A stretch of 64,000 nt of DNA from an uncultured Actinomycetes bacterium. Its GTDB lineage: Bacteria; Actinomycetota; UBA4738; HRBIN12. Of this stretch, positions 26,596 through 48,097 are shown in pieces (position 1 is the stretch's first letter; every line of letters starts with the position of its first letter). The notes under the pieces are model-generated. The model saw only the letters and a program-made list of their open reading frames with translations, had not been told where the DNA came from and did not search any database. The stretch covers positions 80,011 to 144,010 of the forward strand of contig CAVZKB010000001.1 in the NCBI GenBank assembly GCA_963775755.1. Reading direction: 5' to 3'. The translations under genes were made by a program, and so were the position numbers.

Positions 26596-28098
26596 CTATC
26601 GGGTCGCTCGTGCGAGTTCGGTCAGGTCGTCTTCGGGCCGAAGCGCGACCGCGAGCTCATGGGGCGCCGGGATCGCGAGGTCGTCATGCCCCGCGGACCC
26701 CCCTTCCCGCCCCTTGCGCCACCGGACCCAAAGGTAGACGGGCACACCCGCCATCAGCAGCAGGTAGCCCTTCGCGATCGACTCGGAGCCGGTCGCATAC
26801 ATGGCCCAGATGGCGTACCCGAAGCCCAGCGCCGCGATCGTCGCGTCGCGCGCGAGCTTGCGGCCGGTGAACCGAGCGGGTTCCTTCATGAACAGGAACA
26901 GCTCGGCCGCAGCAGCGAACGCGTAGGGGACGACCGTCGTCAAGGTGGCGAGCAGGATCACGAACCCGAACTGATCGACGAGGCTCTTCGTGTAGTTCAT
27001 GAACGTGAGTCCCGTGACCAGCACCGCTGCCGCGATCAAGCCGAACACCGGGGTGCCGCGCCGGCCGTAAACCCGGCCGAACGCCTTGGGGAACAGCCCG
27101 TCCTTGCCCGCACCGAGGGACACCCTCGCCGTGAGCAAGGTCCAGCCGTTCAGGGCGCCGAACGCCGCGATCATCCCGATCGCCCCGACCACCTTGGCCC
27201 AGCTGCCACCGAAGATCTCGGCGGCCGCCGCCGCGAACGGCGCGTTCGACTGCGAGAGCGCGCCGAGCGGGAGGATCCCCATGACCGCGACCGTCGCGAT
27301 CACGTAGATCAACGTCGTCAATCCCGTGCCCAACATCGTGGCTCGCGGGATCGTGCGCTCGGGATCCTTCACCTCTTCGGCCGGCACGGTTGCCGACTCG
27401 AGTCCGATGAAGGCCCAGAGCGTGAACCCGATCGCCACCGTGATCCCCTCGAAGAACCCGAGGGTCGCGCGACCGGCATCCTGCGCGGCGGGGAGGAACG
27501 GCGTGAAGTGATCGGCTTTCAGGTAGAACAGGCCGATGATGCCGATCAGGGCCAGCGGCACGAACTTCAGCACCGTCGTGACCAACTGGACCCAGCCGCC
27601 TTGACGGACTCCGAGCACGTTCACGAACGTGAGGAGCCAGACGGCGCCGACCGCGAGGAGCGCCATCGCGAGGTTGCTATCGGCCAGGCCGGGCCACAGG
27701 ACCGTCGTGTAGCCCACGAACGCGGTGGCGATGGCGGCGTTGCCGACCCACGCCGCGATCCAGTATCCCCACGCGGTTTGGAAGCCGACGAACTCGCCGA
27801 ACGCGCGTCGTGCATAGACGTACGGACCACCGGTCTGCGGGTAGGCACGACCCAGGGTGGCGAACACGCCGGCCAGGAGCATGGCTCCGGCCCCGGTGAT
27901 CGCCCATGCGAGCATGGCGCTCGAGCCGTAGACCAGCGCGACACCGGCGAGCGAAGCCGGCAACAGGAAGACACCCGAACCGATCATGTTTCCGATCACG
28001 AGCGCCGTGGTCATCCCAAGTCCGAGCTCCCTCTTCAACTTAGGGGGGTTCGTCGACTCGGGAAGGAGGACCGTTTCCCTCTCGATCATGTCGACCAT
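26596..28098 (-). CDS. APC-family amino acid permease (12 TM)
   Basis: ...GSGVFLLPASLAG..., 500 aa polytopic. Confidence 0.8.
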   Translation of the reverse strand: MVDMIERETVLLPESTNPPKLKRELGLGMTTALVIGNMIGSGVFLLPASLAGVALVYGSSAMLAWAITGAGAMLLAGVFATLGRAYPQTGGPYVYARRAFGEFVGFQTAWGYWIAAWVGNAAIATAFVGYTTVLWPGLADSNLAMALLAVGAVWLLTFVNVLGVRQGGWVQLVTTVLKFVPLALIGIIGLFYLKADHFTPFLPAAQDAGRATLGFFEGITVAIGFTLWAFIGLESATVPAEEVKDPERTIPRATMLGTGLTTLIYVIATVAVMGILPLGALSQSNAPFAAAAAEIFGGSWAKVVGAIGMIAAFGALNGWTLLTARVSLGAGKDGLFPKAFGRVYGRRGTPVFGLIAAAVLVTGLTFMNYTKSLVDQFGFVILLATLTTVVPYAFAAAAELFLFMKEPARFTGRKLARDATIAALGFGYAIWAMYATGSESIAKGYLLLMAGVPVYLWVRWRKGREGGSAGHDDLAIPAPHELAVALRPEDDLTELARATR

Positions 28099-28209
28099 GA
28101 GGACTTCCCCTCCTTTCGGGCGCGAAGCCCACGGAAGAGGGCTCCCGCCACATCCGACACTATGGGCCCGCCGGTGACCCGATCAGGGTCGATCGGCACG
28201 AGGAACGCA

Positions 28210-28235
28210 GGACCGCCCCCGTCGAGGGGCGGTCC
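28210..28235 (-). terminator. 10-bp GC stem / 6-nt loop hairpin 60 nt downstream of hsp20 stop, candidate intrinsic terminator
   Basis: ggaccgcccc-cgtcga-ggggcggtcc perfect inverted repeat; weak T-tract. Confidence 0.35.
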
Positions 28236-28294
28236 GGATCTGCTGCGGGCCGGCGGACCCGTAACGCCCGCCGGCCCGCGGAGCCCCCGCGGTC

Positions 28295-28774
28295 CTATGC
28301 GGCCTCGACGTGCGGCGTCGTGACCGCGATCTCTCTCACGGGTGGAGCCTCGAGCTTGGTGATGGGCTCGGGGACGACGACCTGAAGGACCCCGTCCTCG
28401 TAGGTGGCCGTGATCGTAGACTCGTCGACCCCGTCGGGGATCGGGATCCGCCGCTCGAAGGCACCGTAGGCGCCCTCCATCCGGTAGTAGGTTCCTTCCT
28501 CGACCTCTTCCTCGTGACGGCGCTCGCCCTTGATCACGAGCTCGCCGTTCTCGACGGCGACCCGAACGTCCTTCGCCGGGTCGATCCCCGGGAGCTCGAC
28601 CCGCACGACGAAGTGCTCGTCGCGGACCAAGACGTCGACCGCCGGTACGAACGGGCGTTGCACGAACAGCGGCAACGCGGGGTACGCGAGCCGTGCGCGA
28701 TTGCCGAACACGCTGTGCAGCACCTCATCCATCCGCCGCTCCAACGTGCCGATCTCCTCCCAGTAGCCACGCAT
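28295..28774 (-). CDS. Hsp20/alpha-crystallin small heat shock protein; likely start MRGYWEEI
   Basis: alpha-crystallin domain (…FVVRVELPGIDPAKDVRVAVENGELVIKGER…AFERRIPIP…). Confidence 0.85.
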   Translation of the reverse strand: MRGYWEEIGTLERRMDEVLHSVFGNRARLAYPALPLFVQRPFVPAVDVLVRDEHFVVRVELPGIDPAKDVRVAVENGELVIKGERRHEEEVEEGTYYRMEGAYGAFERRIPIPDGVDESTITATYEDGVLQVVVPEPITKLEAPPVREIAVTTPHVEAA

Positions 28775-28908
28775 CGTGACCACCTCCCTGGAGCGCTTCG
28801 CTCCGAGCCCACCGTAGGTCGGGGCGTCTGGGATCACCACGGGCGTGGGGCCCGCGTCGTCCGGGTCGAGGGTCCCCTTAAGCCGGGACCGGTGCGAACA
28901 GGGACGGA

Positions 28909-29922
28909 GTGCCGGTGCGCGATCCCGCCTTCACGGTCGCGTCGGGCGCCGCGGCTACCATGGGCGACATGGCGCGCATGTTCGTCGAGGGATGGGCCCC
29001 CGAGTACGGGGCGCCGTTCGATCCGGACGAGCAGCTGGCGCCCGCCGAGGGAACCATCGATGCGACCGTCGAGCTGATGGACTGGGAGCCCCTCGAGGGC
29101 GCCGATGACGGCGCCGATCGGATCGCGTTCGTCGACGGCGTGCGCCGCGTGGACGCCCGCCTCCTGATGGACGACCCAGCCGGTGGCCCGATCCCCGGGA
29201 TCTGCGGGACGTTCGCGGTGGGCGCGACCCTTTGGCACCGGACGCAGCGCCGGTCCGAGATCACGAGCGTCCGGGTCGAACGGTGGGCGGTCCTGGCGGG
29301 CGGCCGCGTCGAAGAGCTGCCGGCTGTTGACCTGGATCCGCCGTACCGCTCCACGACCACGCCGTCAGACGATCCTTCGCATCTGATGACGGAGCTCCAC
29401 ACCCGGATGCGCCGAGCGGAGGGCGAGCTGGCGACGCAACTCGCCGACGGCGCGTTCGTGGTCGCCGACGGTCCGCTCAACAAGCCGCTCGCGCCGCTGC
29501 CGGTCGTCGGCTATATCAAGAGCCATCGCGTGACGTACCTGCCGCTCGAGCAGAACGCCGTCGTCGCCGAGCTCGCCCGTGGACAACGCACGCCGTTGTT
29601 CACGATCTCGGCCGATCGGCCCGACGTGTCTCGCTACTCGTGGTACGTGCGCCTCGCGATGTTGCGCGGCGGCCACTCGTGGACCGGCATCGTCCGGTGC
29701 GAGGCCTCGGGCCGCCTGCCGACGGACGAGGTCCGCGTGATCGCCGACCGCACCGCGGCGCTCCTGCCGATCGTGGGCTCGGAGCCGCACATCGATCCCC
29801 GCGCACCGCAGAACCTGGTGCCGATCGGCGCGCTCGAGCGCGAGCTGCGTCATCGCATGGGCGACCAGGGCTTGGTCTATCGCGCTCTCCGTCAGGCAGT
29901 CAGTGAGCGCGAGGCATCGTAG
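28909..29922 (+). CDS. nurA: NurA-like 5'-3' nuclease (RNase H-like fold)
   Basis: NurA catalytic motifs IAFVDGVRR and FVVADGPL (hhxDGS pattern), about 330 aa, located immediately upstream of HerA-like ATPase. Confidence 0.6.
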   Translation: MPVRDPAFTVASGAAATMGDMARMFVEGWAPEYGAPFDPDEQLAPAEGTIDATVELMDWEPLEGADDGADRIAFVDGVRRVDARLLMDDPAGGPIPGICGTFAVGATLWHRTQRRSEITSVRVERWAVLAGGRVEELPAVDLDPPYRSTTTPSDDPSHLMTELHTRMRRAEGELATQLADGAFVVADGPLNKPLAPLPVVGYIKSHRVTYLPLEQNAVVAELARGQRTPLFTISADRPDVSRYSWYVRLAMLRGGHSWTGIVRCEASGRLPTDEVRVIADRTAALLPIVGSEPHIDPRAPQNLVPIGALERELRHRMGDQGLVYRALRQAVSEREAS

Positions 29923-30275
29923 AGATCACCTCGGCCCTCGCTCATCCGATTTCCCAGCATCGTCCGGGTGTGCATACGGCTCGTGCACGACGGTCCACTA
30001 CAAGTCGGCCACCCGGGCTCACATCGAGTCGTTGGGATACGACATCGTGGCCAATTCGGCGACCAGTTCAGCGACCTGGTCGGCGGGTTCGCGACCGCAC
30101 GTTCAAGATGCCCAACCCGAACTACTTCCTGCCCTAGACGGTCCACGGTCGAGCGCTCCCCGGGGCTCTGCGGACGAACGCGGGTCCGCAGCCCGGGGGC
30201 GTCCGACGGCGCGGCTACGATACGCCCCATGGGGTGGTGCACGATCGTCGTGGGGTTCATCGACGAGGACGACCG

Positions 30276-32012
30276 ATGACCGGCGACGGCGTCGGACGGG
30301 TCCTCGGCTCGGAGCACTCGAACACCAGCGAGTTCCGCGTGGTGCTCGACGACGACGAGTACCTCCAGCTCGACGACCTCATCGTGGTGCGGACCCAGGT
30401 CCCGAAAGCGGGCGAGGTCGCCACATACGGCGTCGTGACCGAGGCCGAATCGGTCTACGAGGGCGCCTCGTATGAGTCCGACACGCATCGGGTCGCCGAG
30501 CTCGGCATCATGCCCGCCGCGAAGGTCCGTTCCGCGCGCGTGGCCGTGACCCGCGTCGATCCCGAGATCTGGGTCTCGCCAGATCCGGGCGAGGTCGTGC
30601 AACGCGCCACCGGCGAGGAACGCTCGAAGGCGCTGTACCTGGACGAGATGGGCAGGCCGCTCCCGATCGGGATCGGTCGCGACGGCGAGCCGGTCTCCGT
30701 CGACCTCGACTTCTTCGACGGCCGCAAGGGCGGCCACATGTCGATCAGCGGCATCAGCGGCGTCGCGACCAAGACGTCGTTCGCCCTGTTCTTCCTGCGG
30801 ATGCTCACCGGGCATCCGGGCGTGGTCGGCGAGGGCGCGTCCAACCTCCGCGTGCTGGTGTTCAACGTGAAGGGCGAAGACCTCCTGTGGCTGGATAAGC
30901 CCAACCGGTCCTTCGACGACGAGGCCGCGGCCGGCTGGGCGGTGCTCGGCGTCGAGCCCGGACCGTTCCCGTCTGTGCGGTTCTGGGCGCCGCCCAGGAG
31001 ACGTTCCGGCGACGTCGTCGTGCCCGACACCGGCGGGCGGCAGGAGGGTGTCGACGTCTTCAGCTGGACGCCTCGCGAGTTCGTCGACGAAGACTGCCTG
31101 CAGTTCCTGTTCACCGATGCGAACGACTCGAAGAACCAGATCCCGTTCGTCCGCGAACGCGTGCAGTCGCAGTTGAAGCGGTTCTCCGTCGACGTCGTGG
31201 GGATGCCTGGTGCGGTCGTGCTCCGCGACCCGCGCGACGCGCCCGACGGGAGCTGGCGTGGTCAGCAGGTCCAGGCGCAGCCCGGCGAGCGGATCGTCAC
31301 CGACCTGCTCACGCTCGTCGGCGCGCTCGGCGAGTTCCTGGAGCCCGAGGACGGCTCGGAGCCGGACTGGGCGTGGAGCGGGCGCGTCATGGGCGGCACG
31401 ATCTCCGCGTTCATGCGAAGGCTGCACGCCGGCGCCGCACGGATGGGCCAGTTGGTCAGGGCCGGCGAGAGCCGCCGCATCGATCGTTCGAAGGCGAGCG
31501 TGACGGTCGTCGCGATCCAGTCGTTGCACGATCAGGCACAGCGGTTCGTGGTCGGTGCGCTGCTGAACGAGGCGTTCCGCGAGAAGGACGAGTCCGGGCA
31601 GCGCCTGCCCCTGTCGGTCGTCGTGCTGGACGAGCTCAACAAGTACGCCCCGCGCGAAGGCACCGGTCCCCTGAAGGACATGCTCGTCGACATCGCGCAA
31701 CGCGGGCGGTCGCTCGGGATCCTGCTCGTCGGCGCGCAGCAGACGGCCTCGCGCGTGGCATCCGAGGTCTTGGAGAACGCCGCCATCCGCGTGAGCGGCC
31801 GCCTGGACGCCGCCGAGGCCGAGCGCGCCGAATACGGCTGGATGCTTCCCTCCACACGCGCTCGAGCCCGGCTGTTGAAGCCCGGAACCATGGTCGTGTC
31901 GCAGCCGGCGATCCCCGTGCCGCTCGTCGTGACGTTCCCGTTCCCGCCGTGGGCCACCAGGAAGGAGGAAGTGGCGACGGACGCCGACGGCGATCCGTTC
32001 GCGGGGCTGTGA
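30276..32012 (+). CDS. herA: HerA-like FtsK/HerA-superfamily hexameric ATPase/helicase; start ATG 30276
   Basis: N-terminal HAS-barrel (GRVLGSEHSNTSEFRVVLDDDEYLQLDDLIVV), central P-loop region (HMSISGISGVATKTS, atypical), Walker B VVVLDELNKY, C-terminal arm. Confidence 0.6.
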   Translation: MTGDGVGRVLGSEHSNTSEFRVVLDDDEYLQLDDLIVVRTQVPKAGEVATYGVVTEAESVYEGASYESDTHRVAELGIMPAAKVRSARVAVTRVDPEIWVSPDPGEVVQRATGEERSKALYLDEMGRPLPIGIGRDGEPVSVDLDFFDGRKGGHMSISGISGVATKTSFALFFLRMLTGHPGVVGEGASNLRVLVFNVKGEDLLWLDKPNRSFDDEAAAGWAVLGVEPGPFPSVRFWAPPRRRSGDVVVPDTGGRQEGVDVFSWTPREFVDEDCLQFLFTDANDSKNQIPFVRERVQSQLKRFSVDVVGMPGAVVLRDPRDAPDGSWRGQQVQAQPGERIVTDLLTLVGALGEFLEPEDGSEPDWAWSGRVMGGTISAFMRRLHAGAARMGQLVRAGESRRIDRSKASVTVVAIQSLHDQAQRFVVGALLNEAFREKDESGQRLPLSVVVLDELNKYAPREGTGPLKDMLVDIAQRGRSLGILLVGAQQTASRVASEVLENAAIRVSGRLDAAEAERAEYGWMLPSTRARARLLKPGTMVVSQPAIPVPLVVTFPFPPWATRKEEVATDADGDPFAGL

Positions 32013-32046
32013 GCGCGAACGCAGCCGTGCGCCGCTCTCCCCCGAG

Positions 32047-33216
32047 ATGAAGATCCTCCACACGTCGGACTGGCACATCGGCAAGAGGCTCGGCCGTCAC
32101 GAGCGGATGGACGAGTTCCACGATGTCCTCGCAGAGGTCGAAGGCATCGCCGACGAGCACCGCGTGGACCTGGTCATCGTCTCCGGCGACGTGTGGGATC
32201 GGCCCGTCCCACCGACGGATGCGCTCGCCCTCGGCCTCCAGACGCTCCTGCGCCTGGCGGTGCGCCGCCCGGTGATCGCCGTGGCCGGGAACCACGACTC
32301 CCCGGAGTTCTTCGAGGCGCTCGCGCCGCTGCTGCGCCCCCTCGGGGTCCACTTGGTCGGCAACGTGTATCGCCCCGACGACGGTGGGATCATCGGACCC
32401 GACGAGCTCGGTGGTCTCCCGGTGGTCGTCGCGTGTTTCCCGTTCCTGCGGGAGGGACGGGTGGTCGACTTCATGAAGGACGCCGGCGAGTGGTACCGGG
32501 GGTACGCGGATCGCATCGCGGCGATCACCGGCCACTACAACGAGGAGCTCGTCAAGCGCGCAGGCGCCGACCTGGTGCCGATCCTCGTCGCGCATTTCCT
32601 CGTGAACGGTGTGAAGGTCGACCGCGAGGCCCCGCGCGGGGAGCGCGAGCTCCACATGGGAGATGCGTACGCCGCGACCCCGCAGGCCATCCCGGCAGGT
32701 CCTCAGTACGTGGCGATGGGACACATCCACGCGCCGCAGCGGGTGCCGGGCTCACCGGTGCCCGCGGAGTACGCGGGCTCGTTGTTGGCGCTCGACTTCG
32801 GAGAGGCCGGGGAGCAGAAGCGGGTCGTGCTCCTCGACGCCGAACCGGGACGGCTCGCGGTCGCGGAGAGCGTGCCTCTTCGGAGCGGGCGCCGGCTCGT
32901 TCGGGTCAACGACACGTGGGACGCGATCGAGGCGCGCGCCGACGAGCTCGCGGGGGCGTTCCTCGATCTCACCGTGAAGACGAGTGGCACGGATATGTCG
33001 CTCGCGGAGCGGGCGCACGAGACGTTCCCGTTCCTGGTCCGGGTACGCGCGCAACGACCCCTCGGTGCCGATCGCGAGCGGCTCGCGAAGGGCCATCGTT
33101 CGTGGGAGGAGCTGTACGCGGAGTACTACCGGCGCGAGCATGACGAGGACGCTCCCGGCGATCTGTTGACCCTCTTCCGCGAGGTGCTCGAGGAGGCCAC
33201 CGATGCGACCGCTTGA
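32047..33216 (+). CDS. sbcD: SbcD / Mre11-family DNA-end nuclease (calcineurin-like phosphoesterase)
   Basis: MKILHTSDWHIG, …IVSGDVWD…, …AGNHD…, …GHIHAPQ… metallophosphatase motifs I-V. Confidence 0.85.
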   Translation: MKILHTSDWHIGKRLGRHERMDEFHDVLAEVEGIADEHRVDLVIVSGDVWDRPVPPTDALALGLQTLLRLAVRRPVIAVAGNHDSPEFFEALAPLLRPLGVHLVGNVYRPDDGGIIGPDELGGLPVVVACFPFLREGRVVDFMKDAGEWYRGYADRIAAITGHYNEELVKRAGADLVPILVAHFLVNGVKVDREAPRGERELHMGDAYAATPQAIPAGPQYVAMGHIHAPQRVPGSPVPAEYAGSLLALDFGEAGEQKRVVLLDAEPGRLAVAESVPLRSGRRLVRVNDTWDAIEARADELAGAFLDLTVKTSGTDMSLAERAHETFPFLVRVRAQRPLGADRERLAKGHRSWEELYAEYYRREHDEDAPGDLLTLFREVLEEATDATA

Positions 33217-35740
33217 GCTGACCCTGGAGGGGTTCCGCTCGTATCGCGAGCGGGTGACGTTCGACTGGCGCGGCCGGCGGCTGGTGGGGATCGTGGGCCC
33301 GATCGGCTCCGGGAAGTCGTCGATCCTGGACGCGGTCTCGTTCGCGCTCTACGGCAAGACCCCGCAGGTGGAGAGCGCCACGAAGTCACTGATCCACCAG
33401 CTGGCCGAGCAATCGCACGTCGAGCTGCGGTTCCAAGTGGACGGCCAGGTCTGGCGAGCGGTGCGATCGCTCCGCCGCAAGGGCGCGTCCGGCCATCAGC
33501 TTTCGCTGCTCGCAGACGACACGCCGGATGCGGCGACGCTCGAGGTCGTCACGCTCGAAGGTCCGATGAACGAGCGCATCGAGCAGCTGCTCGGCATGGA
33601 CTTCAAGACGTTCTGCCGCTCCGTGCTCCTGGCACAGAACCGCTTCGCCGAGTTCCTCAAGGCGACGCCCACGCAGCGGGACGCGGTCCTGAAAGGGGTG
33701 TTCGGGTTCGAGCGGCTCGACGACGCGCTCCGCGTGGCCCGGTGGCACCTGGAGCGAGCCGATCTGGAGCTCGCGTCCCTGCAGAAGGAGCGCGAGCGCG
33801 TGGACGAGGCGCGCATCGAGCTCGGCCAGGCTCGCGAGGCGGCGGAGACCACCCGCGCCCGATCGACCGCGCTCGAAGCCGCTGGACCCGAGGTCGAGCG
33901 GCTCGAGAAGGAGCGCGACGCCGCCGCGGGAGAGGCCGAGACCTCGGCCGCTCGGATCGGCGCGTTGACCGAGATCGCGGGGGGGCTGCCGTCGGAGGCG
34001 GACGTTCGTTCCGTGGTCGAGTCCGCGCTCGAGGCGGGAACCAGGATCGCCGCAGCCAAAGCGGCCGCCGATGACGCGGAGCGGGACAGGCGGGCACGTG
34101 AGGCCGAGCTGGCCGACGTGGCATCGCGTCTGGGCGACCGCGAGCGCTTCCGTTCGTTCGAACATCTGGTGCAGACCCACGAGCGGCAGGTCGAAGCGGT
34201 GCAGGCCACCGGTGTCGAGGTGGAACGCATGGACGAGGAGCTCGCCTCCGCGCGCGCCTCGCTGGAAGAACGGTCGGCGGCGGGCAAAGACGCCGAGGAC
34301 GCGCTCGACGCCGCCGACCGAGCCCTGGCCGGCGCCCTGGTCGCCGTCGAAGATGCGCGGAAGGCGTTGATGGACGCCGCGCATGCGGAGATGGCGCACG
34401 AGCTCCGTTCGACGCTCATCGCCGGCGAGCCGTGCCCGGTCTGCCGGCAAGAGGTCCATGCCGTTCCCAGGGCCGGGGCCGCGCCCAAGGTCGCGGCCGC
34501 GCGGAAGGCGCTCACCAAGGCGGAGAAGGTCGAGGCGACCGTTCGGGCCGACAAGGAGCGGTGCGCATCGACCGGAGCGTCGATGCGCACCGCGATCGCG
34601 GAGGCGGAGAGCCGCATCGGGAAGGCGGAGGCCGACCGAGCCCGGGCGGACACGGCGCGGGCAGCCGTCGAGGCCGACCTCGCCGCCACCAAGAGCCAGC
34701 TGATCGAAGGACTCCACGGAGAGGGTGACTTCCGCTCCCTCTTCGAGGCCCGGCAAGCAGAGCTGACGGCCGCGGAGCGCGCGTTCGAGCAGGCTCGCAC
34801 GGCTCTCGAGCTGACCCGCGCGGGAGTCGAGGAGGCGGAGCACCTCGCCGAGGGAGCGGGCGAGGCGATCGCCGCGATCGCCAACCGGTTCTCGGGACTC
34901 TGGGGACGTCTCGACGAGGATCGAGACGTCCCGCGGGACCCCGACGCGATCACGGCGTCGTTCTCGGAGCTCCGAGCGACGATCGTCGCGCGCCACGACG
35001 AAGCGGTCGCGACGCGCGAGACGGCGAGCGCCAGGGTCGACGAGGCGAACGAGGCGCGCTCCGCCCTGCTGGCAACGGTCGGACTCGCTCCCGCCGACGA
35101 TTTCCGGCGGGCGCTCGCGGAAAGCGCCATGGCCCACGGGACGGCGACCGCCCACGTGCAGCAGCTGGAGGAGCGGATCGCATCCGCGAGCGAGCTCGAA
35201 CGCCAGGTGATGGTGTGCGAGGCACGCCGCGCCGTCGCGAAGCGGCTCACCGACGACCTTCAGCCGTCGCGCTTCTTGGGCTTCCTCCTGCGGGAGGAAC
35301 GCGCAGAGCTTGCGGAGCTCGGGAGCGATCACTTCGCAGAGCTGAGCGACGGCGCCTACCGGTTCACCGACGACGATCGCTTCGACATCCTCGACCTGAA
35401 CGCCGCGAGCACGAAGCGGAAGGCCGACTCACTCTCTGGTGGGGAGACGTTCCTGGCGTCGTTGGCGCTCGCCCTCGCGCTGGCGGAGATGGTCGCGCGG
35501 GGTGGTGGTCGGCTCGATTCCTTCTTCTTGGACGAAGGCTTCGGGAGCCTCGACCCCGAGCACCTCGACCGGGCGATGGATGGCATCGGGCGCCTGGTCT
35601 CCGAGAACGAACGCCGCCTCGTCGTGGTCGTCAGCCATGTGGCCGAGATGCGCGAGGCGATCGAAGACCTCATCGTCCTCGAGAAGGACGACGTCACGGG
35701 CGACACGGTGGTTCGATCCGGCGTTGGCCCCGCTGCGTGA
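33203..35740 (+). CDS. sbcC: SbcC / Rad50-family ATPase with coiled coil and zinc hook
   Basis: Walker A GPIGSGKSS, long coiled coil, zinc-hook CPVC, ABC signature LSGGETFLASLALALAL, D-loop FFLDEGFGSLD. Confidence 0.9.
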   Translation: MRPLELTLEGFRSYRERVTFDWRGRRLVGIVGPIGSGKSSILDAVSFALYGKTPQVESATKSLIHQLAEQSHVELRFQVDGQVWRAVRSLRRKGASGHQLSLLADDTPDAATLEVVTLEGPMNERIEQLLGMDFKTFCRSVLLAQNRFAEFLKATPTQRDAVLKGVFGFERLDDALRVARWHLERADLELASLQKERERVDEARIELGQAREAAETTRARSTALEAAGPEVERLEKERDAAAGEAETSAARIGALTEIAGGLPSEADVRSVVESALEAGTRIAAAKAAADDAERDRRAREAELADVASRLGDRERFRSFEHLVQTHERQVEAVQATGVEVERMDEELASARASLEERSAAGKDAEDALDAADRALAGALVAVEDARKALMDAAHAEMAHELRSTLIAGEPCPVCRQEVHAVPRAGAAPKVAAARKALTKAEKVEATVRADKERCASTGASMRTAIAEAESRIGKAEADRARADTARAAVEADLAATKSQLIEGLHGEGDFRSLFEARQAELTAAERAFEQARTALELTRAGVEEAEHLAEGAGEAIAAIANRFSGLWGRLDEDRDVPRDPDAITASFSELRATIVARHDEAVATRETASARVDEANEARSALLATVGLAPADDFRRALAESAMAHGTATAHVQQLEERIASASELERQVMVCEARRAVAKRLTDDLQPSRFLGFLLREERAELAELGSDHFAELSDGAYRFTDDDRFDILDLNAASTKRKADSLSGGETFLASLALALALAEMVARGGGRLDSFFLDEGFGSLDPEHLDRAMDGIGRLVSENERRLVVVVSHVAEMREAIEDLIVLEKDDVTGDTVVRSGVGPAA

Positions 35741-35902
35741 GGGGTCCGGTCGGCGTTTGCGCGCGCGCAGTCTCGAACTACCAGGTATGGGGTACGACCA
35801 AAGACCTACCTGATTCCGACCATATCCCTCCCGCGACCGACTACGGGTTGCCCCGATAGGGACCGATACAACCCTGGAGGGCCCATTCGCACAAGGGGAA
35901 CG

Positions 35903-38900
35903 ATGGCCGGCCAGAGAAGCATCTACCGTATCGCCCGGACGCTGCTGCTCGCGTTGGCAGCGCTCTTGGCTGTTGGCGCGGTCGGCTCCATGTTCCTCGG
36001 TTCCCGTGCGGTCAGCCAGGCGAAAGCATCCGCGGTCGACCAAGCGCGAACCATCGTCGATAACTCGTTGCCGCTGACGTTGTCACCCGGCGACGTCGGC
36101 TCCCCCGCCACCGACGCGAAGGCTGATCTGATCACCGCCAAGATCACGCCGGTCATCCTGGATCCCAGCGCGTGGGATGACGTCGCGATCTGGTCGCTCG
36201 ACGGCCAGATCGTCTATTCGACCGATCGCTCACTGATCGGACAACGGCCGGAGGAAGCCCGCACCAGCGTGCGCGACGCGACCGAGCGCGGGATCACCTC
36301 TTCCGAACAGAACGACGGCATGTTCTCGGTCCTCATCCCCCTTCGCTTCCGGACCGACGGGCCCGTCAGTGCCGCGATCCAGATGGCGCGGCCCGACGAC
36401 CTGATCGCCGCCGCCGGCCGGCCCTGGCGCTACAACGCGATCCTCATGACGACCGGCCTGATCATCACGCTCCTCGTCCTGTACCGGGTGATGCGGCTCA
36501 CCGCGTCGGCCAGCGCCAACCTGAGCTTCACGCCCTCCACGCGGGACCGCGTCGCTCCCATCCCGATCGGTGTGGGCCAGCGTTCGATCGAGGCGTCCGC
36601 GCCCGGGCTCCGCGAGGAGGCCGACGCGCGGAAGAAGGCGGAGGACCGCGCCGTCGCGGCCGAGGAGCGCTTGAAGGTGATCCAGGATCAGTACCGCAAG
36701 ACCCTCGAGGAACTGCACGTCACGCAGCGCGTCCTCCAGGAGCGTCCGGTCCCGAGCGGGACCGACCCGGAGATCGAGGCACGGCTCCTGAAGGCCGAAG
36801 GCAACGCCACGCTGCTCGAGACGCAGTTGAATGCGATGAGCACGGAACGGGACAGGCTCGCTCGACACATCGCCGAACAGGCCAAGGCCAAGGTCGACAA
36901 GGCCGACCCGGAGCTCGATCGCAAGACCCGTCAGGTCGAGCAGGAGGCGATCGGGCTGCGGGCAGAGCTCGAGGGAGCGCAGACGGAGCTCTCGGTGACG
37001 CGCCGTGAGCTGGATGCGCTGAAGGCGCAGGCCGCTCATGCGCAGGAGATCCAGCAAGATCTCGACAACGCGCATGTCGAGGCGCTCCATGCTCGTGAGG
37101 CGGCGGAGACCGCGGAGAGTGAGTTGGCGCGCGCAACCGCCGAACTTAGCGACGTCCACAACGAGCTCCGAGCGCTGCGGACCGAGGAGCAGAAGGCGAG
37201 CGTCTTCGGCGAGGAGCTCCGTGCCGCGCGCGCCGAGATCGAGAGCCTCAAGGCGTCGCACAGCGCCGACCTGATCGAACGCGAGGCCGAGCTGGAGACC
37301 CGCGTCCGCACGGCCCGGGAGGAGTTCCAAGCGCAGCTGGGGCAGACCGAAGCCAGGGCGCAGCGCGAGCTGGCGGATCGCGAAGAGGCGTTGACCAAGG
37401 AAGCCGCGTCGGCCGTCGGAGAGCTGCGCCAGGCGGCCGCCGAGCGCGAGGCAGAGCTGCAGACCAAGCTCGCCGAGCGAGAGGCCGAGCTGCAACATCG
37501 GCTCGCCGAGCGAGAGTCCGAGCTGCAGGAACAGATCTCCGAGCAGGCCGCACTGCTCGAGCAGCGGCTCGCCCAGCGGGAAGCGGAGCTCACGGCACGC
37601 GTCGCCGAGGTCGAAGGTGCGGCGGATACGACGAAGAACCAGCTCGGGACGGCCAACGCCGAGCTCGAGACGTTGCGGGGCGAACTGCAGGCCGCCAAGG
37701 ACGAGATCGAAGCGTTCACCCACGACGGGTCATCCCGCAACGAACAGGTCGCGAAGGCGAACGAGGAACTGGTCCGGTCCCGAACCGAGATCGAGACGCT
37801 CCAGCAGGAGCTCGCCGAGATCCAGCGCGGTCGTGAGGCGGCCGAGACCAAGCTGCAGAACGCGACGCGCGAGCGTGAGGCGCTCGAGCGTGAGCTGGCG
37901 GCGGCCAGCGCGGAAGTCCAGGCGGAGCTCGCGCGGGGCGTCGAGCTGTCGACGAAGGCCGAGATCGCGGAGGAGGAGCTTCGGGCGGCACGAGAGGCGG
38001 CGTCCGGTGCCGAGGACGACCTGCGAGCGGTCCGCGCCGAGAAGGAGAGCCTTGCCGCAGCGTTCGAAGAGGCCAAGGCTCGTCATGCCGCCGAGATCGC
38101 CACGGCGGCCGCGAAGCCCGACCTCGAAGAGGTCCTGCGAGCGAGCCAGGAACGGCTGGCCAGCCAGACCGAGAAGCTCATCGAGGTCGAGGAGCGCGCG
38201 CACTCCGCCGAGCGGCAGTTCGCCGATTCGGTCGTCCGGCTCGAAGAGGTAGAGGCCGAGCTGCGTCACCTCCAGATGGAGAAGGCGTTGCACGACCTGC
38301 AGTCCGAGCGCCCGGCCCTGGAATCCGCCACCGCGGTCGACGCGACCATCCCGAACGTGCCGCTCGAGGATCGAAGGGCTTCGAGCCCCTTCACCAAGGA
38401 GCTCGCGCTCGACGCGAAGAAGTCGCTCTCACACATCTTGGGGCTCACGCAGATCATGAAGTACAAGAAGGACTCGAAGGACCAGACGCAGTTGATCAAG
38501 CAGCTGACGGCCGCGGCGCGACGCTTGGACCACACCGTCGCAGACCTGGCCGAGGCCGACTCGCTCGCGCACGGCGTCGTCGACCTGACGATCAAGCGGA
38601 CCGACCTGGAAGCGCTCGTGAAGCGCGTCGTGGACGAGTCCGGCATCGGCTCGGATCACGACGTTCGCATCGACAGCCAGTCACTGGTCGTCGGCGTCGA
38701 CGCGCTCCGCGTCGAACAGGTCCTCGGAGGGATGCTCCGCACGTGCGGCGACCGCACCGCGACGGGCAAGGCCATCACGGTTCGTCTGTCGCCCATGGAT
38801 GGCGGCGCGTTGATCTCGGTCGAGGACCCTGAGCCCTCGTCCGACGGAACGCTCAGCCCCGTCATCACACGGTTCGCCGAGATGCAGGGCGGATGGACCA

Positions 38901-39139
38901 AGATCGAGAGTCGTGACGGTGGTGGCTCGGCGTTCCGCGTGTTCTTGCCCGACGGCGGACCGTCCGGCGAGACCAACGCGTCCGTGGAGGACGACGCGGT
39001 CGAGGAGGACGAGCCGGCCGCCCCAGGCACGCTGCAGATCGTGGTGGCCGAGCCGGAGCAGGAGAGCACCGACGCGTGGAGCGGCTCGGAGGAGCAGCTG
39101 TTCGTGCAGGAGCTGCACCGGCTGCACGCGGAGGACTGA
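35903..39139 (+). CDS. 1078-aa membrane protein: two TM helices flanking a periplasmic domain, roughly 600-aa cytoplasmic coiled coil, C-terminal degenerate histidine-kinase-like DHp/CA domain
   Basis: TM1 LLLALAALLAVGAV, TM2 ILMTTGLIITLLVLY; heptad-rich E/A/R/L region with tandem LAEREAELQ repeats; DHp-like helix LALDAKKSLSHILGLTQIM; CA-like end ...GGSAFRVFLP without clear N/G1 boxes. Confidence 0.55.
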   Translation: MAGQRSIYRIARTLLLALAALLAVGAVGSMFLGSRAVSQAKASAVDQARTIVDNSLPLTLSPGDVGSPATDAKADLITAKITPVILDPSAWDDVAIWSLDGQIVYSTDRSLIGQRPEEARTSVRDATERGITSSEQNDGMFSVLIPLRFRTDGPVSAAIQMARPDDLIAAAGRPWRYNAILMTTGLIITLLVLYRVMRLTASASANLSFTPSTRDRVAPIPIGVGQRSIEASAPGLREEADARKKAEDRAVAAEERLKVIQDQYRKTLEELHVTQRVLQERPVPSGTDPEIEARLLKAEGNATLLETQLNAMSTERDRLARHIAEQAKAKVDKADPELDRKTRQVEQEAIGLRAELEGAQTELSVTRRELDALKAQAAHAQEIQQDLDNAHVEALHAREAAETAESELARATAELSDVHNELRALRTEEQKASVFGEELRAARAEIESLKASHSADLIEREAELETRVRTAREEFQAQLGQTEARAQRELADREEALTKEAASAVGELRQAAAEREAELQTKLAEREAELQHRLAERESELQEQISEQAALLEQRLAQREAELTARVAEVEGAADTTKNQLGTANAELETLRGELQAAKDEIEAFTHDGSSRNEQVAKANEELVRSRTEIETLQQELAEIQRGREAAETKLQNATREREALERELAAASAEVQAELARGVELSTKAEIAEEELRAAREAASGAEDDLRAVRAEKESLAAAFEEAKARHAAEIATAAAKPDLEEVLRASQERLASQTEKLIEVEERAHSAERQFADSVVRLEEVEAELRHLQMEKALHDLQSERPALESATAVDATIPNVPLEDRRASSPFTKELALDAKKSLSHILGLTQIMKYKKDSKDQTQLIKQLTAAARRLDHTVADLAEADSLAHGVVDLTIKRTDLEALVKRVVDESGIGSDHDVRIDSQSLVVGVDALRVEQVLGGMLRTCGDRTATGKAITVRLSPMDGGALISVEDPEPSSDGTLSPVITRFAEMQGGWTKIESRDGGGSAFRVFLPDGGPSGETNASVEDDAVEEDEPAAPGTLQIVVAEPEQESTDAWSGSEEQLFVQELHRLHAED
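37437..37601 (+). repeat. 33-nt (11-aa LAEREAELQxx) tandem repeats x3-4 inside the coiled-coil gene
   Basis: gccgagcg(c)gag(g)c(a)gagctgca...ctc repeated head-to-tail at 37437, 37470, 37503 and a diverged copy at 37569. Confidence 0.6.
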
Positions 39140-39157
39140 ACACCCCGCCTTACGTCG

Positions 39158-40318
39158 CTAGTCCAAGAGCTTCAGGAGCTCCCGCGATATCACCAGCCGT
39201 TGGATCTGGTTCGTGCCTTCGTAGATCTGGGTGATCTTCGCGTCGCGCATGAACCGTTCCGCGGGGTACTCCCGGACGTAGCCGTACCCCCCCAGGACCT
39301 GCACGGCATCCGTCGTGACCGCCATGGCCGCATCCGAAGCGAAGCACTTCGCGACGCTCGAGTGGAACGGCATCCGCGGGTCGCCCGCGTCGCACGCCGC
39401 GAGCGCCCGATACGTGAGCACCCGCGCCGCCTCGACCTTCATCGCCATGTCCGCGAGCATGAACTTGATCCCCTCGAAGTCGACGATCCGCTCGCCGAAC
39501 TGCTTGCGTTCGCTCCCGTACGCGAGCGCGAGGTCGAGCGCTCCTTGCGCGATCCCCACGGCCTGTGCCGCGATCACCGGACGAGAGTGATCCAGTGTCC
39601 GCATCGCGATCGAGAACCCTTCCCCTTCCTCGCCAACCATCCGATCCATCGGGATGCGACACGCGTCGAGGATCACCTCACGCGTGGGCGAACCCTTGAT
39701 TCCCATCTTCTTCTCCGGCTTGCCGAACGAGACGCCGGGGTCCTCGCGCATCACGAGGAACGCCGAGACGCCTTTCGCGCGAAGCGCCGGATCCCGGGTC
39801 GCGAACACCAGGTACGCATGTGACACCCCGGCGCCCGTGATGAAGCGTTTGGTCCCGTTCAGCACGACATGGTCGCCGTCGCGTTCGTACCGCGTGGTCA
39901 TGGCGGCGGCGTCGGAGCCCGCGCCGGCTTCGGTGAGCGCGTACGACATCAGGATGTCGCCGCGGCAGATGCCCTGCGTCATGGATCGTCGTTGTTCGTC
40001 GGTGCCGGCCAGCATCAGCGGGATCACGCCGAGCTTCGAAACGATCGGCGTCAGCGACACACCGGCGGACACGCGCGAGAGCTCCTCGATGAACACGCCG
40101 AACGCGAGCGCGCCGCCGCCAGACCCGCCGTCAGCCTCGGGGTATCCGACACCCATCAGATCGTTGTCGACGAGGACCTGGTAGACGTCCTCGGGCCATT
40201 CGTCGGTCTCGTCGATCTCGGCGGCCCGAGGCCCGATCCTCTCCTCGGCGATGCGCCGGACGAGCGAGCGGAACTCCTCCAGCTCTTCCGGCAGCTCGTA
40301 GCGTCGGTCGTCCATCAC
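39158..40318 (-). CDS. acyl-CoA dehydrogenase
   Basis: ACAD N/M/C domains, catalytic glutamate region …YEGTNQIQRLVISRELL. Confidence 0.9.
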   Translation of the reverse strand: MMDDRRYELPEELEEFRSLVRRIAEERIGPRAAEIDETDEWPEDVYQVLVDNDLMGVGYPEADGGSGGGALAFGVFIEELSRVSAGVSLTPIVSKLGVIPLMLAGTDEQRRSMTQGICRGDILMSYALTEAGAGSDAAAMTTRYERDGDHVVLNGTKRFITGAGVSHAYLVFATRDPALRAKGVSAFLVMREDPGVSFGKPEKKMGIKGSPTREVILDACRIPMDRMVGEEGEGFSIAMRTLDHSRPVIAAQAVGIAQGALDLALAYGSERKQFGERIVDFEGIKFMLADMAMKVEAARVLTYRALAACDAGDPRMPFHSSVAKCFASDAAMAVTTDAVQVLGGYGYVREYPAERFMRDAKITQIYEGTNQIQRLVISRELLKLLD

Positions 40319-40327
40319 TAGTCTGTT

Positions 40328-41512
40328 TCAGACTACACGCCGGATGACCAGCGCGTCGCCCTGTCCCCCGCCCCCGCAGAGGGCCGCCGTACCGACGTCG
40401 ATACCCCGGCGGCGCATCTCCATGGCAAGCGTCAGCACCAGACGGGCGCCGCTCGCCCCGATCGGGTGACCGAGCGCGATCGCTCCCCCGTTCACGTTGA
40501 CGATGTCGTCTCCGATCCCGAGCGTGCGGGACGCGTGGATCGCCACCGCGGCGAACGCCTCGTTGATCTCGACGAGGCCGAGCGTGCCGACGTCCAGCCC
40601 GGCACGCTTCAACGCGGCCTCGATCGCGAGCGCGGGCACCGTCTGCAAGGACGAGTAGGCGCCGGCCGCCATGCCGTATGCCTCGATCGACGCGATCGGC
40701 TCGAGCTGGAGTCGCGCGGCCGCCTCTTCGCTGGCGACGACGACGGCGGCGGCGCCGTCGGAGATCTGCGACGCGTTCCCCGCGGTGGCCGTCCCGTCCG
40801 CCGTGAACGCCGGTGGAAGCGCGGCCAGCGACTCCAGGCTGGTGTCGGGCCTGATCCCTTCATCGCGGTCGAAGATCACGGGATCGCCCTTCCGATCTGG
40901 CACCTCGACCGCCACGACCTCCTCGGCCAGCCGCCCGGCGTCCCACGCATCGATCGCCCGTCGGTGCGAGCGTTCCGACCACGCGTCCTGGTCAGCGCGC
41001 TCGAGGCCCAGTTCGCGGCTCACGATGTCGGTGCCCTCGCCCATGTGGTGATCGTGGAAGCTCGACCAGAGTCCGTCGTGGATCATCGAGTCGACGAGCG
41101 CCGCATCGCCCAAGCGCGATCCGTCGCGCGCCTTCGGGATCAGGTACGGCGCGTTGGTCATCGACTCCATCCCGCCAGCCACGGCGATCTCGAGCTCGCC
41201 CGCGCGGATCATCTGGTCGGCCATCGCGATCGCGGAGAGCCCCGACAGGCAGACCTTGTTCACCGTGATCGCGGGGACCTCCTTGGGGATACCCGCGCCG
41301 ACGGCCGCCTGGCGAGCCGTGATCTGACCCGTGCCGGCCTGGATCACGTGCCCCATGATCACGTACTCGACCTGGTCCGGCGACACACCCGATCGATCGA
41401 GCGCCGCGCGGATGGCGATCGCTCCGAGGTCCACGGCATCGAACCCCGCCAGCGAACCGCGGAACTTCCCGATCGGCGTGCGGGCGCCGGCGATGATGAC
41501 CGACCGCGTCAT
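40328..41512 (-). CDS. acetyl-CoA C-acetyltransferase (thiolase II)
   Basis: active-site Cys VNKVCLSGL, …NVNGGAIALGHPIGASGARL…, CGGGGQG. Confidence 0.9.
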   Translation of the reverse strand: MTRSVIIAGARTPIGKFRGSLAGFDAVDLGAIAIRAALDRSGVSPDQVEYVIMGHVIQAGTGQITARQAAVGAGIPKEVPAITVNKVCLSGLSAIAMADQMIRAGELEIAVAGGMESMTNAPYLIPKARDGSRLGDAALVDSMIHDGLWSSFHDHHMGEGTDIVSRELGLERADQDAWSERSHRRAIDAWDAGRLAEEVVAVEVPDRKGDPVIFDRDEGIRPDTSLESLAALPPAFTADGTATAGNASQISDGAAAVVVASEEAAARLQLEPIASIEAYGMAAGAYSSLQTVPALAIEAALKRAGLDVGTLGLVEINEAFAAVAIHASRTLGIGDDIVNVNGGAIALGHPIGASGARLVLTLAMEMRRRGIDVGTAALCGGGGQGDALVIRRVV

Positions 41513-42018
41513 GGGTCGAGTCTACCGTCGCGCCACAGCTCGAAGATCGCGACGCTGTCGGGACAGAATTCCTCATCCCGCAGCATCCGGTCGAGCTCGC
41601 CGACGGTCACGAACCCACCCCACGCGATCTCCTCCGGCTGCGGGGTGATCGGTCCGTTCCATGTGACCTCGTAGAGGCGCATCAGGGCACGCTCGAACGG
41701 ACCGTCGAAGGTGTGTCGAGCACGCTCGCGGAGCTCGACGCCGTTGATGCCGGTCTCCTCGGCGAGCTCCCGGCGGGCGCCGTCCGTCCACGACTCCGCG
41801 CTCGCGAGCACGCCTCCCACGACCATGTCGTACAAGCCGGGATAGACGTCCTTCGTCTCCGTACGGCGATGCACCCAGATCTCGCCGGCATCGTTGCGGA
41901 CCGCGATCTCGGCGCACCGATGACGGAGGTTACGCCTCCGCATCTCGGCACGGGTCACGACGTCGAACACTCGATCGCCTTCGTCGACGATATCGACCAG
42001 CTCATCCCCAGCGTCCAC
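41509..42018 (-). CDS. NUDIX hydrolase
   Basis: Nudix box GGVLASAESWTDGARRELAEETGI. Confidence 0.8.
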   Translation of the reverse strand: MDAGDELVDIVDEGDRVFDVVTRAEMRRRNLRHRCAEIAVRNDAGEIWVHRRTETKDVYPGLYDMVVGGVLASAESWTDGARRELAEETGINGVELRERARHTFDGPFERALMRLYEVTWNGPITPQPEEIAWGGFVTVGELDRMLRDEEFCPDSVAIFELWRDGRLDP

Positions 42019-47149: not shown

Positions 47150-48070
47150 CTATGCGGGCGAGATCTGCGCGACCGGACAGACGTCGGCCCGTGGGCACCA
47201 GCCGCAGTACACGCCGGGGGTGAGCTCCGCCTCGCGACCGTTCCACAGGGCGGCCGCAGCCCGGGCGGCAGCGATCACGCGATCGGCCGCGTGCTGCAAG
47301 CCCTGCTCGCCGACATCTTCCGACTGCCACTCACCGCTCTCGAGGAACAGCGACGCCACGCGATAAGGCGGGACGCCGAACCGAAGCGTCAGTAACAACG
47401 CGTAGTAGCGGAGATCCTCGGGGTACTCGGGGTAGGCGTTGCCCGTCTTCAGATCGATCGCCAAGCGCGTGGCGCGGGTCGGCTCCAACCGGTCGGGCGC
47501 GCCGAGCACCAGGTCGATCCGGCCGGAGAGGATGAGCGCGCCGCCCAGCAGCTCGGCTCTCACCGGCATCTCCGAGATCGGCGTCAGCTCACGGCGGAGC
47601 TCCTTCAGCGGCGGGAAGGATCCCTGGAACATGGTGATGCGCCGCGTCACCTCCATCAGCACGTCGTCGCGGTCGGTCGGCGCCAGGCCGTTCCAGTACT
47701 CGGCGAACCGCTCCTCGCGCTCCACCAGACGGTCGGCGGCGATCTCGGCGATCTCGTGCGCGCCGAGCCCGTCGCGCGCGCCAACCTCGACCTCCACCGC
47801 CCGGTGCAGCAGCACGCCGGCGGCGCTCTTCGGCGAATGCTCGAACGGCGGTGCCTCGCCCGAGATCGCCGATGCGAACTTGCCCTCGCATCGCCCGTGA
47901 TCGGTGAGCTTCTCCTTGCCGAGCCAAAGGGTGTCGCGGAGCTCGAGCTCGCGGACGGCTTCCTCGATGCGATCCCGCAGGCGCTGCGCGAGGTCGGCGG
48001 GGAACGTGGGGCGGGGGTCGGTGCCGATCAGCTGCTCGAGCGTGCGCCGCTGCGGGTCGGTGAGCTCCAC
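47150..48070 (-). CDS. PD-(D/E)xK nuclease with Cas4/AddB-type 4-Cys iron-sulfur motif (RecB-family exonuclease-like); start (GTG 48070) uncertain
   Basis: N-terminal Cys DHGRCEG, catalytic GRIDLV / IDLKTGN / YYALLL, C-terminal CGWCPRADVC. Confidence 0.55.
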   Translation of the reverse strand: MELTDPQRRTLEQLIGTDPRPTFPADLAQRLRDRIEEAVRELELRDTLWLGKEKLTDHGRCEGKFASAISGEAPPFEHSPKSAAGVLLHRAVEVEVGARDGLGAHEIAEIAADRLVEREERFAEYWNGLAPTDRDDVLMEVTRRITMFQGSFPPLKELRRELTPISEMPVRAELLGGALILSGRIDLVLGAPDRLEPTRATRLAIDLKTGNAYPEYPEDLRYYALLLTLRFGVPPYRVASLFLESGEWQSEDVGEQGLQHAADRVIAAARAAAALWNGREAELTPGVYCGWCPRADVCPVAQISPA

Positions 48071-48097
48071 CCGTGCATGGTAGGGATAGGAACCGAC

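Follow-up and report, generated by a model that had tools for sequence, protein, structure and literature searches.

Systems built on the HerA translocase and the NurA nuclease are already known, together with Mre11-Rad50 in archaea, as the bacterial NurA-HerA pair of Deinococcus and Thermus, and in the linked form of Oceanithermus. In Sulfolobus and Pyrococcus, the four functions are clustered on one strand in a herA-mre11-rad50-nurA operon, which is induced by ultraviolet (UV) light (PMC5448004). In Deinococcus radiodurans, nurA lies upstream of herA in a two-gene unit whose connection to SbcCD has not been established (PMC4663267), and the products assemble into a HerA6:NurA2 complex, in which the ATPase and the nuclease depend on each other for activity (PDB 7F6D, 7WRW, and 7WRX). 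The nurA-hepA(herA)-sbcD-sbcC cluster of Oceanithermus profundus, a member of the Deinococcota, was presented as an exceptional situation due to the recruitment of SbcDC (Blesa et al. 2017, PMC5448004). Here, we analyze a nurA-herA-sbcD-sbcC cluster from an uncultured Actinomycetes bacterium, located in a 64-kb stretch of contig CAVZKB010000001.1 (the whole stretch is hereafter called the window), and compare it with related genome loci, which are designated by L-numbers. The cluster probably represents a chromosomal and vertically inherited DNA-end processing module, composed of bacterial-type NurA, HerA, and SbcD/SbcC and serving damage-inducible resection.

The initial annotation had recognized four co-directional genes and had quoted motifs for a NurA, a HerA, an SbcD, and an SbcC protein. 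These genes do occur on the plus strand where it had placed them (Table 1), the motifs are found in the four products, and matches in the PDB, Pfam, and NCBIfam bear out the four identities. In a phmmer search of the PDB, residues 3–567 of HerA align with residues 12–602 of the D. radiodurans HerA chain (DrHerA, 7f6d_B, E = 3.2e-119, 402 bits), and NurA matches D. radiodurans NurA (DrNurA, 7f6d_H, E = 4.4e-25) as well as Thermotoga TM1739 (1zup, E = 7.1e-11). With profiles built from relatives in three phyla, the E values reach 2.1e-190 for DrHerA, 9e-57 for DrNurA, and 1.9e-20 for TM1739. No structure named archaeal HerA or NurA was among the matches listed by the single-sequence and profile searches of the PDB.

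Mutagenesis of the D. radiodurans proteins has established that K175, T176, D487/E488, R495, and R552 of DrHerA and D53, K201, R309, and W8 of DrNurA are needed for function (PMC9960219). The window HerA displays the motifs GISGVATKT159 (Walker A), KGED199, LDEL451 (Walker B), and RGRS476, and its K166/T167, E201/D202, D452/E453, R460, and R517 correspond to K175/T176, D220, D487/E488, R495, and R552 of DrHerA. These catalytic and translocation residues, which comprise the Walker A and B residues, the acidic residue typical of additional strand, catalytic E (ASCE) ATPases, and the translocation arginines, are identical to those of DrHerA when the two proteins are aligned, and they vary little or not at all in two multiple alignments. 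NurA contains the motifs FVDG74 and ADGP186, and D53/K201/R309/W8 of DrNurA correspond to D76/K204/R298/W29, all numbered from the GTG-initiated open reading frame (ORF) at 28909. Numbered from the ATG at 28969, D56, K184, and R278 are invariant and W9 nearly so in an 11-sequence alignment covering three phyla. The conservation of the catalytic residues and the PDB matches therefore identify, at the sequence level, the first two products as bacterial-type NurA and HerA, clear orthologs of the D. radiodurans proteins, and all four genes look functional.

A frameshifted HerA N terminus in the ORF 29903–30475, which has no family match, was considered and ruled out; HerA is complete from the ATG at 30276 and aligns from residue 12 of DrHerA. 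An identical 578-aa protein is encoded on ENA contig_12224, a 1.35-Mb contig of a metagenome assembly, and the 592-aa product of the longer herA ORF has no exact record match. The nearest HerA relatives come from metagenome-assembled genomes (MAGs) labeled Actinomycetes, Actinomycetota, or Acidimicrobiia.

Curated domain models miss both proteins. Pfam returned nothing for HerA even at E values of up to 10, and the sole NCBIfam match of HerA is a marginal one to the type VII secretion protein EccCa (E = 0.009). NurA stays below threshold against the Pfam NurA family (PF09376; E = 0.013, 15.5 bits versus a gathering score of 21) and has no match in NCBIfam or PADLOC. The Pfam searches by which the initial annotation had proposed to verify the families hence succeed for SbcD and SbcC and fail for the other two proteins; taken alone, they would wrongly refute NurA and HerA because the curated models miss both, and it was the comparison with PDB sequences that resolved their identity. 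None of the 120 listed HerA homologs has a precomputed Pfam domain, and NCBIfam is devoid of a model for HerA or NurA. This annotation gap concerns a large HerA/NurA family, and the repair-gene inventories of Actinomycetota and Chloroflexota MAGs therefore likely under-report it.

The two other proteins are readily assigned. SbcD matches Pfam Metallophos (E = 5.9e-16) and the NCBIfam model TIGR00619 (sbcd, 150.9 bits versus a cut-off of 77.65), and all its phosphoesterase motifs are found (DWH8, GDVWD47, GNHD81, and GHIH225). SbcC exceeds the gathering scores of Pfam AAA_23, SMC_N, and SbcC_Walker_B; its best NCBIfam match is TIGR00618 (207 bits, yet under the cut-off of 478.5), and it has a split head and a coiled coil, with a Walker A at 32, a CPVC hook at 411, SGGE at 745, a Walker B (FFLDE) at 774, and an H-loop at 811. 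For both proteins, the bacterial sbcd/sbcc NCBIfam models outscore the archaeal Mre11/Rad50 models by far.

The qualification of the cluster as archaeal-style, also put forward in the initial annotation, does not hold, as the components are of bacterial type (DrHerA/DrNurA, TM1739, and the sbcD/sbcC models) and the gene order differs from the archaeal one. While the archaeal operon likewise gathers the four functions on one strand and has the same relative order of herA, mre11, and rad50, its nurA comes last and that of the window comes first; furthermore, HerA and NurA of the window are missed by archaeal-type models, and their partners are bacterial-type SbcD and SbcC. The D. radiodurans system is closer with respect to HerA and NurA, which are orthologous, have the same functional residues, and are encoded in the same order. 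It differs from the window in that sbcD-sbcC directly follow herA in the latter, where nurA and herA are in addition split by a spacer and both resulting units have an actinobacterial PafBC-type box. O. profundus has the same architecture as the window, with bacterial SbcD and SbcC after herA, in another phylum.

A scan with one genome per species yielded at least 576 stretches with a close HerA relative, of which the best 80 loci were fetched. In every one of these 80 loci whose contig reaches far enough, nurA-herA-sbcD-sbcC are colinear and on one strand, and the four-gene arrangement is therefore far beyond chance. The genes are tightly packed. The nurA-herA gap has a median of 2 nt, is often a 4-nt overlap, and does not exceed 60 nt in 74 of 79 measured loci, window copies included. 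The herA-sbcD junction has a median of 5.5 nt with many 4-nt overlaps (76 loci), and the only large interruption, of 4.3 kb, is that of L060. The sbcC gene overlaps sbcD in 73 of 73 measurable cases, mostly by 14 nt (median −14 nt). In the window, 34 nt separate the herA stop at 32012 from the sbcD start at 32047, and the sbcC start overlaps the sbcD end by 14 nt. Identity to the window declines in parallel for the four proteins (HerA, 96 to 56%; NurA, 86 to 38%; SbcD, 86 to 40%) and the flanking genes vary, which indicates inheritance as a block.

The sample includes MAGs labeled Chloroflexota or Dehalococcoidia (L051, L055, L056, L061, L076, and L080), and distant HerA relatives with 41–47% identity are found in annotated records. 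The conjugative plasmid1 of the cyanobacterium Sphaerospermopsis kisseleviana (L084, 6958–13958) has the order nurA-herA-sbcD-sbcC, and its genes overlap by 4 and 14 nt as they do in the Actinomycetota loci. The archaeal order herA-sbcD-sbcC-nurA is found on a linear plasmid of Streptomyces sp. BB1-1-1 (L083, 7878–15447) and in Nonomuraea gerenzanensis (L082, 8001–14504 of an 11.85-Mb record); in both RefSeq records, HerA is labeled "ATP-binding protein" and NurA "hypothetical protein." For this HerA family, the earlier assertion that bacterial NurA/HerA pairs are usually unlinked to sbcCD is thus contradicted by the linkage to sbcDC in every sampled genome of the Actinomycetota and Chloroflexota and on the cyanobacterial plasmid, as well as by the published case of O. 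profundus (PMC5448004). Linkage of the four genes is not unusual in the bacterial HerA family, the block being kept together in many bacteria from soil and water, and the cluster is largely what is expected of a repair module rather than an archaeal oddity.

The NurA-HerA pair might still lie beside a housekeeping SbcCD by mere juxtaposition, the two systems being independent and without cooperation. The unlinked genes of Deinococcus and Thermus, where no link between the two pairs is known (PMC4663267, PMC5448004), and the position of the window nurA, apart from herA and behind its own promoter, would agree with such independence. We nevertheless regard it as improbable because the genes overlap and remain grouped across no fewer than three phyla, whichever of the two orders they follow. 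The short herA-sbcD distances across 76 loci speak in the same direction, as do the copy of the same promoter that herA-sbcDC retained once nurA had split off in the window lineage (see below) and the reported binding of archaeal HerA to Mre11 (PMC2288612).

In mycobacteria, PafBC reprograms the housekeeping polymerase at DNA-damage genes (PMC8635444, PMC6789036); the in vivo consensus is tGTCgg(N10)tA(N3)T, in which the GTC triplet is strictly conserved (PMC8635444). Two boxes of the window, one before nurA and one before herA (Table 1), fit this geometry and consensus, with a GTC at about −26, a 12-nt spacer, and a TAnnnT −10 element. As in the mycobacterial promoters (RecA-NDp; PMC8635444, PMC6789036), the arrangement is bipartite, has no −35 element, and precedes repair genes; in contrast to these promoters, the boxes described here belong to uncultured lineages, were detected from sequence only, and have a consistently leaderless geometry. 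No nurA-herA target was found in the mycobacterial PafBC literature searched.

In 64 of 71 loci, the motif GTC-N12-TAnnnT occurs in the 70 nt that precede the nurA start, compared with 0.5% of random 82-nt segments. The GTC is 27–30 nt before the nurA start codon in 52 loci, and the −10 hexamer is exactly 7 nt before the ATG in 39 loci, a distance that implies a leaderless nurA mRNA. Alignment of the nurA upstream regions reveals that GTC and TA...T are invariant and that the spacer between them is variable. Throughout the 1.43 Mb of fetched loci, the motif was matched 125 times, including 74 matches that a long ORF follows at a distance of 5–9 nt; nurA accounts for 66 of these 74. In the window, the nurA ORF runs upstream to a GTG at 28909 (337 aa); box 1 ends 7 nt before the ATG at 28969 and therefore fixes the start at this ATG, which is likely the genuine one rather than the GTG. 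Gene callers place the nurA start about 18–20 codons early, at 28915 in L001 and at 28909 for the ORF. A scan of positions 28000–40000 for sigma-70 promoters and intrinsic terminators gave no promoter and one terminator-like site inside sbcD, below shuffles, and is uninformative because the DNA is about 69% G+C.

In the whole window, the motif is matched only five times, and three of these matches directly precede nurA, herA, and a gene encoding a PD-(D/E)XK nuclease; the two others, at 41508–41528 (+) and 28057–28037 (−), have no credible gene start directly after them. The nuclease (306 aa; PDDEXK_1, Pfam E = 5e-12) has a C-terminal cysteine cluster, and its box, a perfect PafBC-type sequence, ends 6 nt before its GTG. 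Among 80 metagenomic orthologs fetched, the box is present in all 78 with a usable 5′ end, at an identical position in 69, with the consensus aTGTCGG-N10-TA(C/G)CAT. This pattern points to a gene that would be leaderless and damage-regulated. The box thus marks a small putative regulon of DNA-processing genes in the window lineage. We infer from these boxes a PafBC-like regulator and induction by DNA damage, and a prediction that follows is the extension of the PafBC-type regulon to uncultured Actinomycetota.

Divergent from the nuclease gene is a gene encoding a helix-turn-helix (ArsR-like) and DUF2087 protein. The start codon of this gene, an ATG, directly adjoins the GTC box of the nuclease promoter (the complement reads CAT directly 5′ of GTCGG), and as this overlap is kept in many orthologous loci, the two genes have a common and very compact control region. 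Exact LexA-like boxes (GAAC-N4-GTTC) are found in the window only at 1473 and 48658, the latter just downstream of the DUF2087 gene, and none is present at the cluster. In one Chloroflexota locus (L055), a LexA-type box (GAACGTGCGTTC) and a TAGAAT −10 element replace the GTC element about 42 nt upstream of nurA, which suggests that the same operon may be under SOS control in another phylum.

The four genes of the window are not uniformly tight, a 353-nt spacer between nurA and herA having been missed in the initial annotation. A sizeable gap at this junction is found only in the window, L001, L002, L003, and L081, and only in this sub-lineage does the junction behave as a hot spot for insertions. 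While no credible ORF was found in the window spacer, those of L002 (9226–10000, 775 nt) and L003 (1304–2196, 893 nt) contain genes on the opposite strand, DUF1918 and S30AE-like in the former and Usp and DUF1918 in the latter. To judge from a weak similarity, the window spacer is collinear with that part of the L003 spacer which lies nearest herA, and it seems to keep a 5′ remnant of DUF1918 at about 29942–30022 (−).

Just 5′ of herA, the block GCTACGATACGCnCCATGG is common to the window, L002, and L003, and it is nearly identical to the −10/start region of nurA in L003, L009, L011, L057, and L058. A blastn comparison also revealed that the region upstream of the window herA resembles the region 5′ of nurA in L003. 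The ATG of this copy, 7 nt downstream of box 2, opens a mini-ORF whose stop codon, TGA, shares bases with the ATG of herA (ATGA). The counterpart in L002 (9957–9995) has 12 codons and stops 5 nt before the herA GTG; that of L003 (2153–2200) has 15 codons and a TGA overlapping the herA GTG, and its peptide ends with EREAS, which resembles the C terminus of NurA (SEREAS). Box 2 has the appearance of a nurA promoter that was duplicated and now serves herA-sbcD-sbcC, and the mini-ORF is probably what is left of a nurA duplicate, still translationally coupled to herA. Once foreign genes had entered the nurA-herA junction, the duplicated promoter and the collapsed nurA copy would thus have preserved both the damage-type promoter and the coupling. 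The spacer, box 2, and the mini-ORF therefore make two transcription units likely, nurA alone and mini-ORF-herA-sbcD-sbcC, with the same kind of promoter before both. Cotranscription of the four genes, as first proposed, is in consequence likely for herA-sbcD-sbcC, given the short gap, the overlap, and the lack of a terminator-like site between the genes, and not supported for a single four-gene unit, given the spacer and the promoter-like box of herA.

According to the mechanism that we favor, DNA damage would activate a PafBC-like WYL regulator, which would let the housekeeping RNA polymerase use the two GTC(−26)/TAnnnT(−10) promoters. The first promoter would drive a leaderless nurA mRNA, and the second, duplicated one would drive the leaderless mini-ORF, translationally coupled to herA, and then sbcD and sbcC. 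SbcCD binds ends via a Rad50-type head and a coiled coil bearing the zinc hook, and it cuts off hairpins and opens blocked ends; in this module, it would recognize and clip broken, hairpin-capped, or blocked DNA ends. HerA6-NurA2 would load on the end. As in the homologous Deinococcus complex (PMC9960219), the HerA hexamer would pump the duplex into a dimer of NurA, which would separate the strands and degrade the 5′ strand during translocation. The outcome would be a 3′ tail for RecA loading. The operon structure suggests that, once damage has occurred, HerA-NurA and SbcCD may work on the same ends, either one after the other or jointly. Induction by damage, a PafBC-like protein as the regulator, a physical interplay between HerA-NurA and SbcCD, and resection as the end result are predicted features of the module.

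Several observations weigh against a damage-inducible resection module. The core of box 2, GTCCG, departs from GTCGG, no GTC-N12-TAnnnT motif precedes the clusters of Streptomyces, Nonomuraea, and the cyanobacterium, and the GTC element is absent from the Chloroflexota loci. In the window genome, nurA is physically uncoupled from herA. Furthermore, nurA/herA deletion in D. radiodurans raises the resistance to UV and mitomycin C (PMC9960219), and a 2026 study casts doubt on resection by archaeal HerA-NurA and proposes an antiviral role (PMC12977600).

This last proposal bears on a second alternative, which the initial annotation had raised as a defense-like NurA-HerA module next to housekeeping sbcCD; HerA-NurA, with SbcCD, would then degrade invading linear DNA of phages or plasmids. 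WYL-domain regulators also control some defense systems. Weak PADLOC matches connect HerA with mad8 (4e-8) and with a HerA model (1.9e-7), and SbcC with mad3 and LmuB, the cyanobacterial copy sits on a conjugative plasmid, and the herA-first variant of the Streptomyces plasmid adjoins ImmA/IrrE and TIGR02678/TIGR02680/DUF2397 genes, the latter being presumably Wadjet-like. The described HerA defense systems (Sir2-HerA and DUF4297-HerA; PDB 8XAU and 8WIV) likewise pair a HerA-superfamily ATPase with a nuclease or effector. However, their HerA proteins match that of the window only marginally and over the C-terminal ATPase (E = 0.005 and 0.03; 2e-4 with the profile), the partners of the window HerA are NurA and SbcD rather than Sir2 or DUF4297, and the PADLOC matches are partial, none being full-length, with the best stretch of the HerA model confined to residues 422–528 in the ATPase region and NurA unmatched. 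The context is not that of a defense island either: the locus is chromosomal, its neighbors are metabolic or housekeeping genes, no integrase, transposase, or defense gene was found within 10 kb on either side of the cluster, and the G+C content is about 69% throughout the window without compositional anomaly at the four genes. Unlike patchy defense islands, the block recurs in conserved order in every species sampled, its proteins diverging in parallel, and its promoter motif is common to a RecB-family nuclease, the PD-(D/E)XK protein. For these reasons, we consider a defense function unlikely.

There is also little likelihood of a role other than resection, such as the processing of hairpins, which SbcCD cleaves in E. 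coli, or of stalled forks, or a HerA DNA pump in segregation or transfer. The resistance of the D. radiodurans mutants (PMC9960219) and the NurA-like/HerA-like pair that drives transjugation in Thermus, where TdtA and its NurA-like partner belong to an integrative and conjugative element (PMC5365140), would favor such roles; against them stand the orthology of the window HerA with DrHerA, the absence of an integrative and conjugative element context at the window locus, and the damage-type promoter common to the RecB-family nuclease, and these roles overlap in any case with the resection module, the enzymology being identical.

The cooperation of HerA-NurA with Mre11-Rad50 in resection is debated (PMC9960219, PMC12977600). 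A bacterial four-gene block that nearly always forms a tight operon argues for a common function in response to DNA damage, and in Actinomycetota, this block also stands behind a PafBC-type damage promoter. Since cultured carriers exist, namely Streptomyces and Nonomuraea with herA first, the idea of a shared function is testable. As the linked form is general in the sampled Actinomycetota and Chloroflexota and occurs on a cyanobacterial plasmid, the linked state may be ancestral. A broader scenario, which we put forward as a tentative one with the odds rather against it, is that linkage was ancestral across Terrabacteria (Actinomycetota, Chloroflexota, Cyanobacteriota, and Deinococcota), that the unlinked state of Deinococcus and Thermus is derived, and that the four components form one damage-induced resection machine, PafBC-controlled in Actinomycetota. 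In this scenario, RecA loading could depend mainly on the module in lineages with few RecBCD, AddAB, or AdnAB systems. No mention was found in the literature searched of how widely the linkage extends in Actinomycetota, Chloroflexota, and Cyanobacteriota, of the leaderless promoter of PafBC type, or of the promoter duplication with its mini-ORF; earlier comparative work may already contain part of this.

Table 1. Features of the window discussed in the text, with positions counted from its first nucleotide.
Feature	Coordinates	Strand	Description
nurA	28969–29922	+	Bacterial-type NurA nuclease, 317 aa from ATG 28969; ORF 28909–29922
herA	30276–32012	+	Bacterial-type HerA hexameric dsDNA translocase, 578 aa; ORF 30234/30276–32012
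sbcD	32047–33216	+	Mre11-family phosphoesterase, 389 aa
sbcC	33203–35740	+	Rad50-family ABC ATPase with zinc hook, 845 aa
Promoter box 1	28941–28961	+	PafBC-type, GTCGGGCGCCGCGGCTACCAT; GTC −26 element, N12, TAnnnT −10
nurA-herA spacer	29923–30275		353 nt; seeming DUF1918 remnant, box 2, mini-ORF
Promoter box 2	30201–30221	+	PafBC-type, GTCCGACGGCGCGGCTACGAT, upstream of herA
Mini-ORF	30229–30279	+	16 codons, MGWCTIVVGFIDEDDR followed by a stop
PD-(D/E)XK nuclease gene	47150–48097	−	PDDEXK_1 family
Nuclease promoter box	48097–48077	−	PafBC-type, GTCGGTTCCTATCCCTACCAT
DUF2087 gene	48098–48649	+	Helix-turn-helix (ArsR-like) and DUF2087 protein
hsp20	28295–28840	−	181-aa ORF
1078-aa protein gene	35903–39139	+	162 nt 3′ of sbcC

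Within 10 kb on either side of the cluster, the window encodes an aconitase, a thioesterase, an ArsR-type regulator, DsrE/TusA sulfur proteins, a cytidylate-kinase-like protein, Hsp20, an acyl-CoA dehydrogenase, a thiolase, and a NUDIX hydrolase. An Rfam scan of the whole window matched nothing, and a repeat search of positions 28000–36200 returned chance high-GC matches only. The locus L001, on the near-identical ENA contig, encodes four repair proteins that are 100% identical to those of the window, and its nurA-herA spacer differs at 6 positions. Its hsp20 gene (8019–8565) is called as just 56 aa, a difference in length from the window ORF that may be due to an assembly indel; the spacer differences and the hsp20 length therefore designate the window and L001 as near-identical yet separate assemblies. 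Downstream of sbcC, the 1078-aa protein has two N-terminal hydrophobic segments, a coiled coil of about 600 aa, and a C terminus with weak, sub-threshold resemblance to HisKA/HATPase_c; its gene is kept 3′ of sbcC only in the closest clade (about 17 loci, 36–82% identity).

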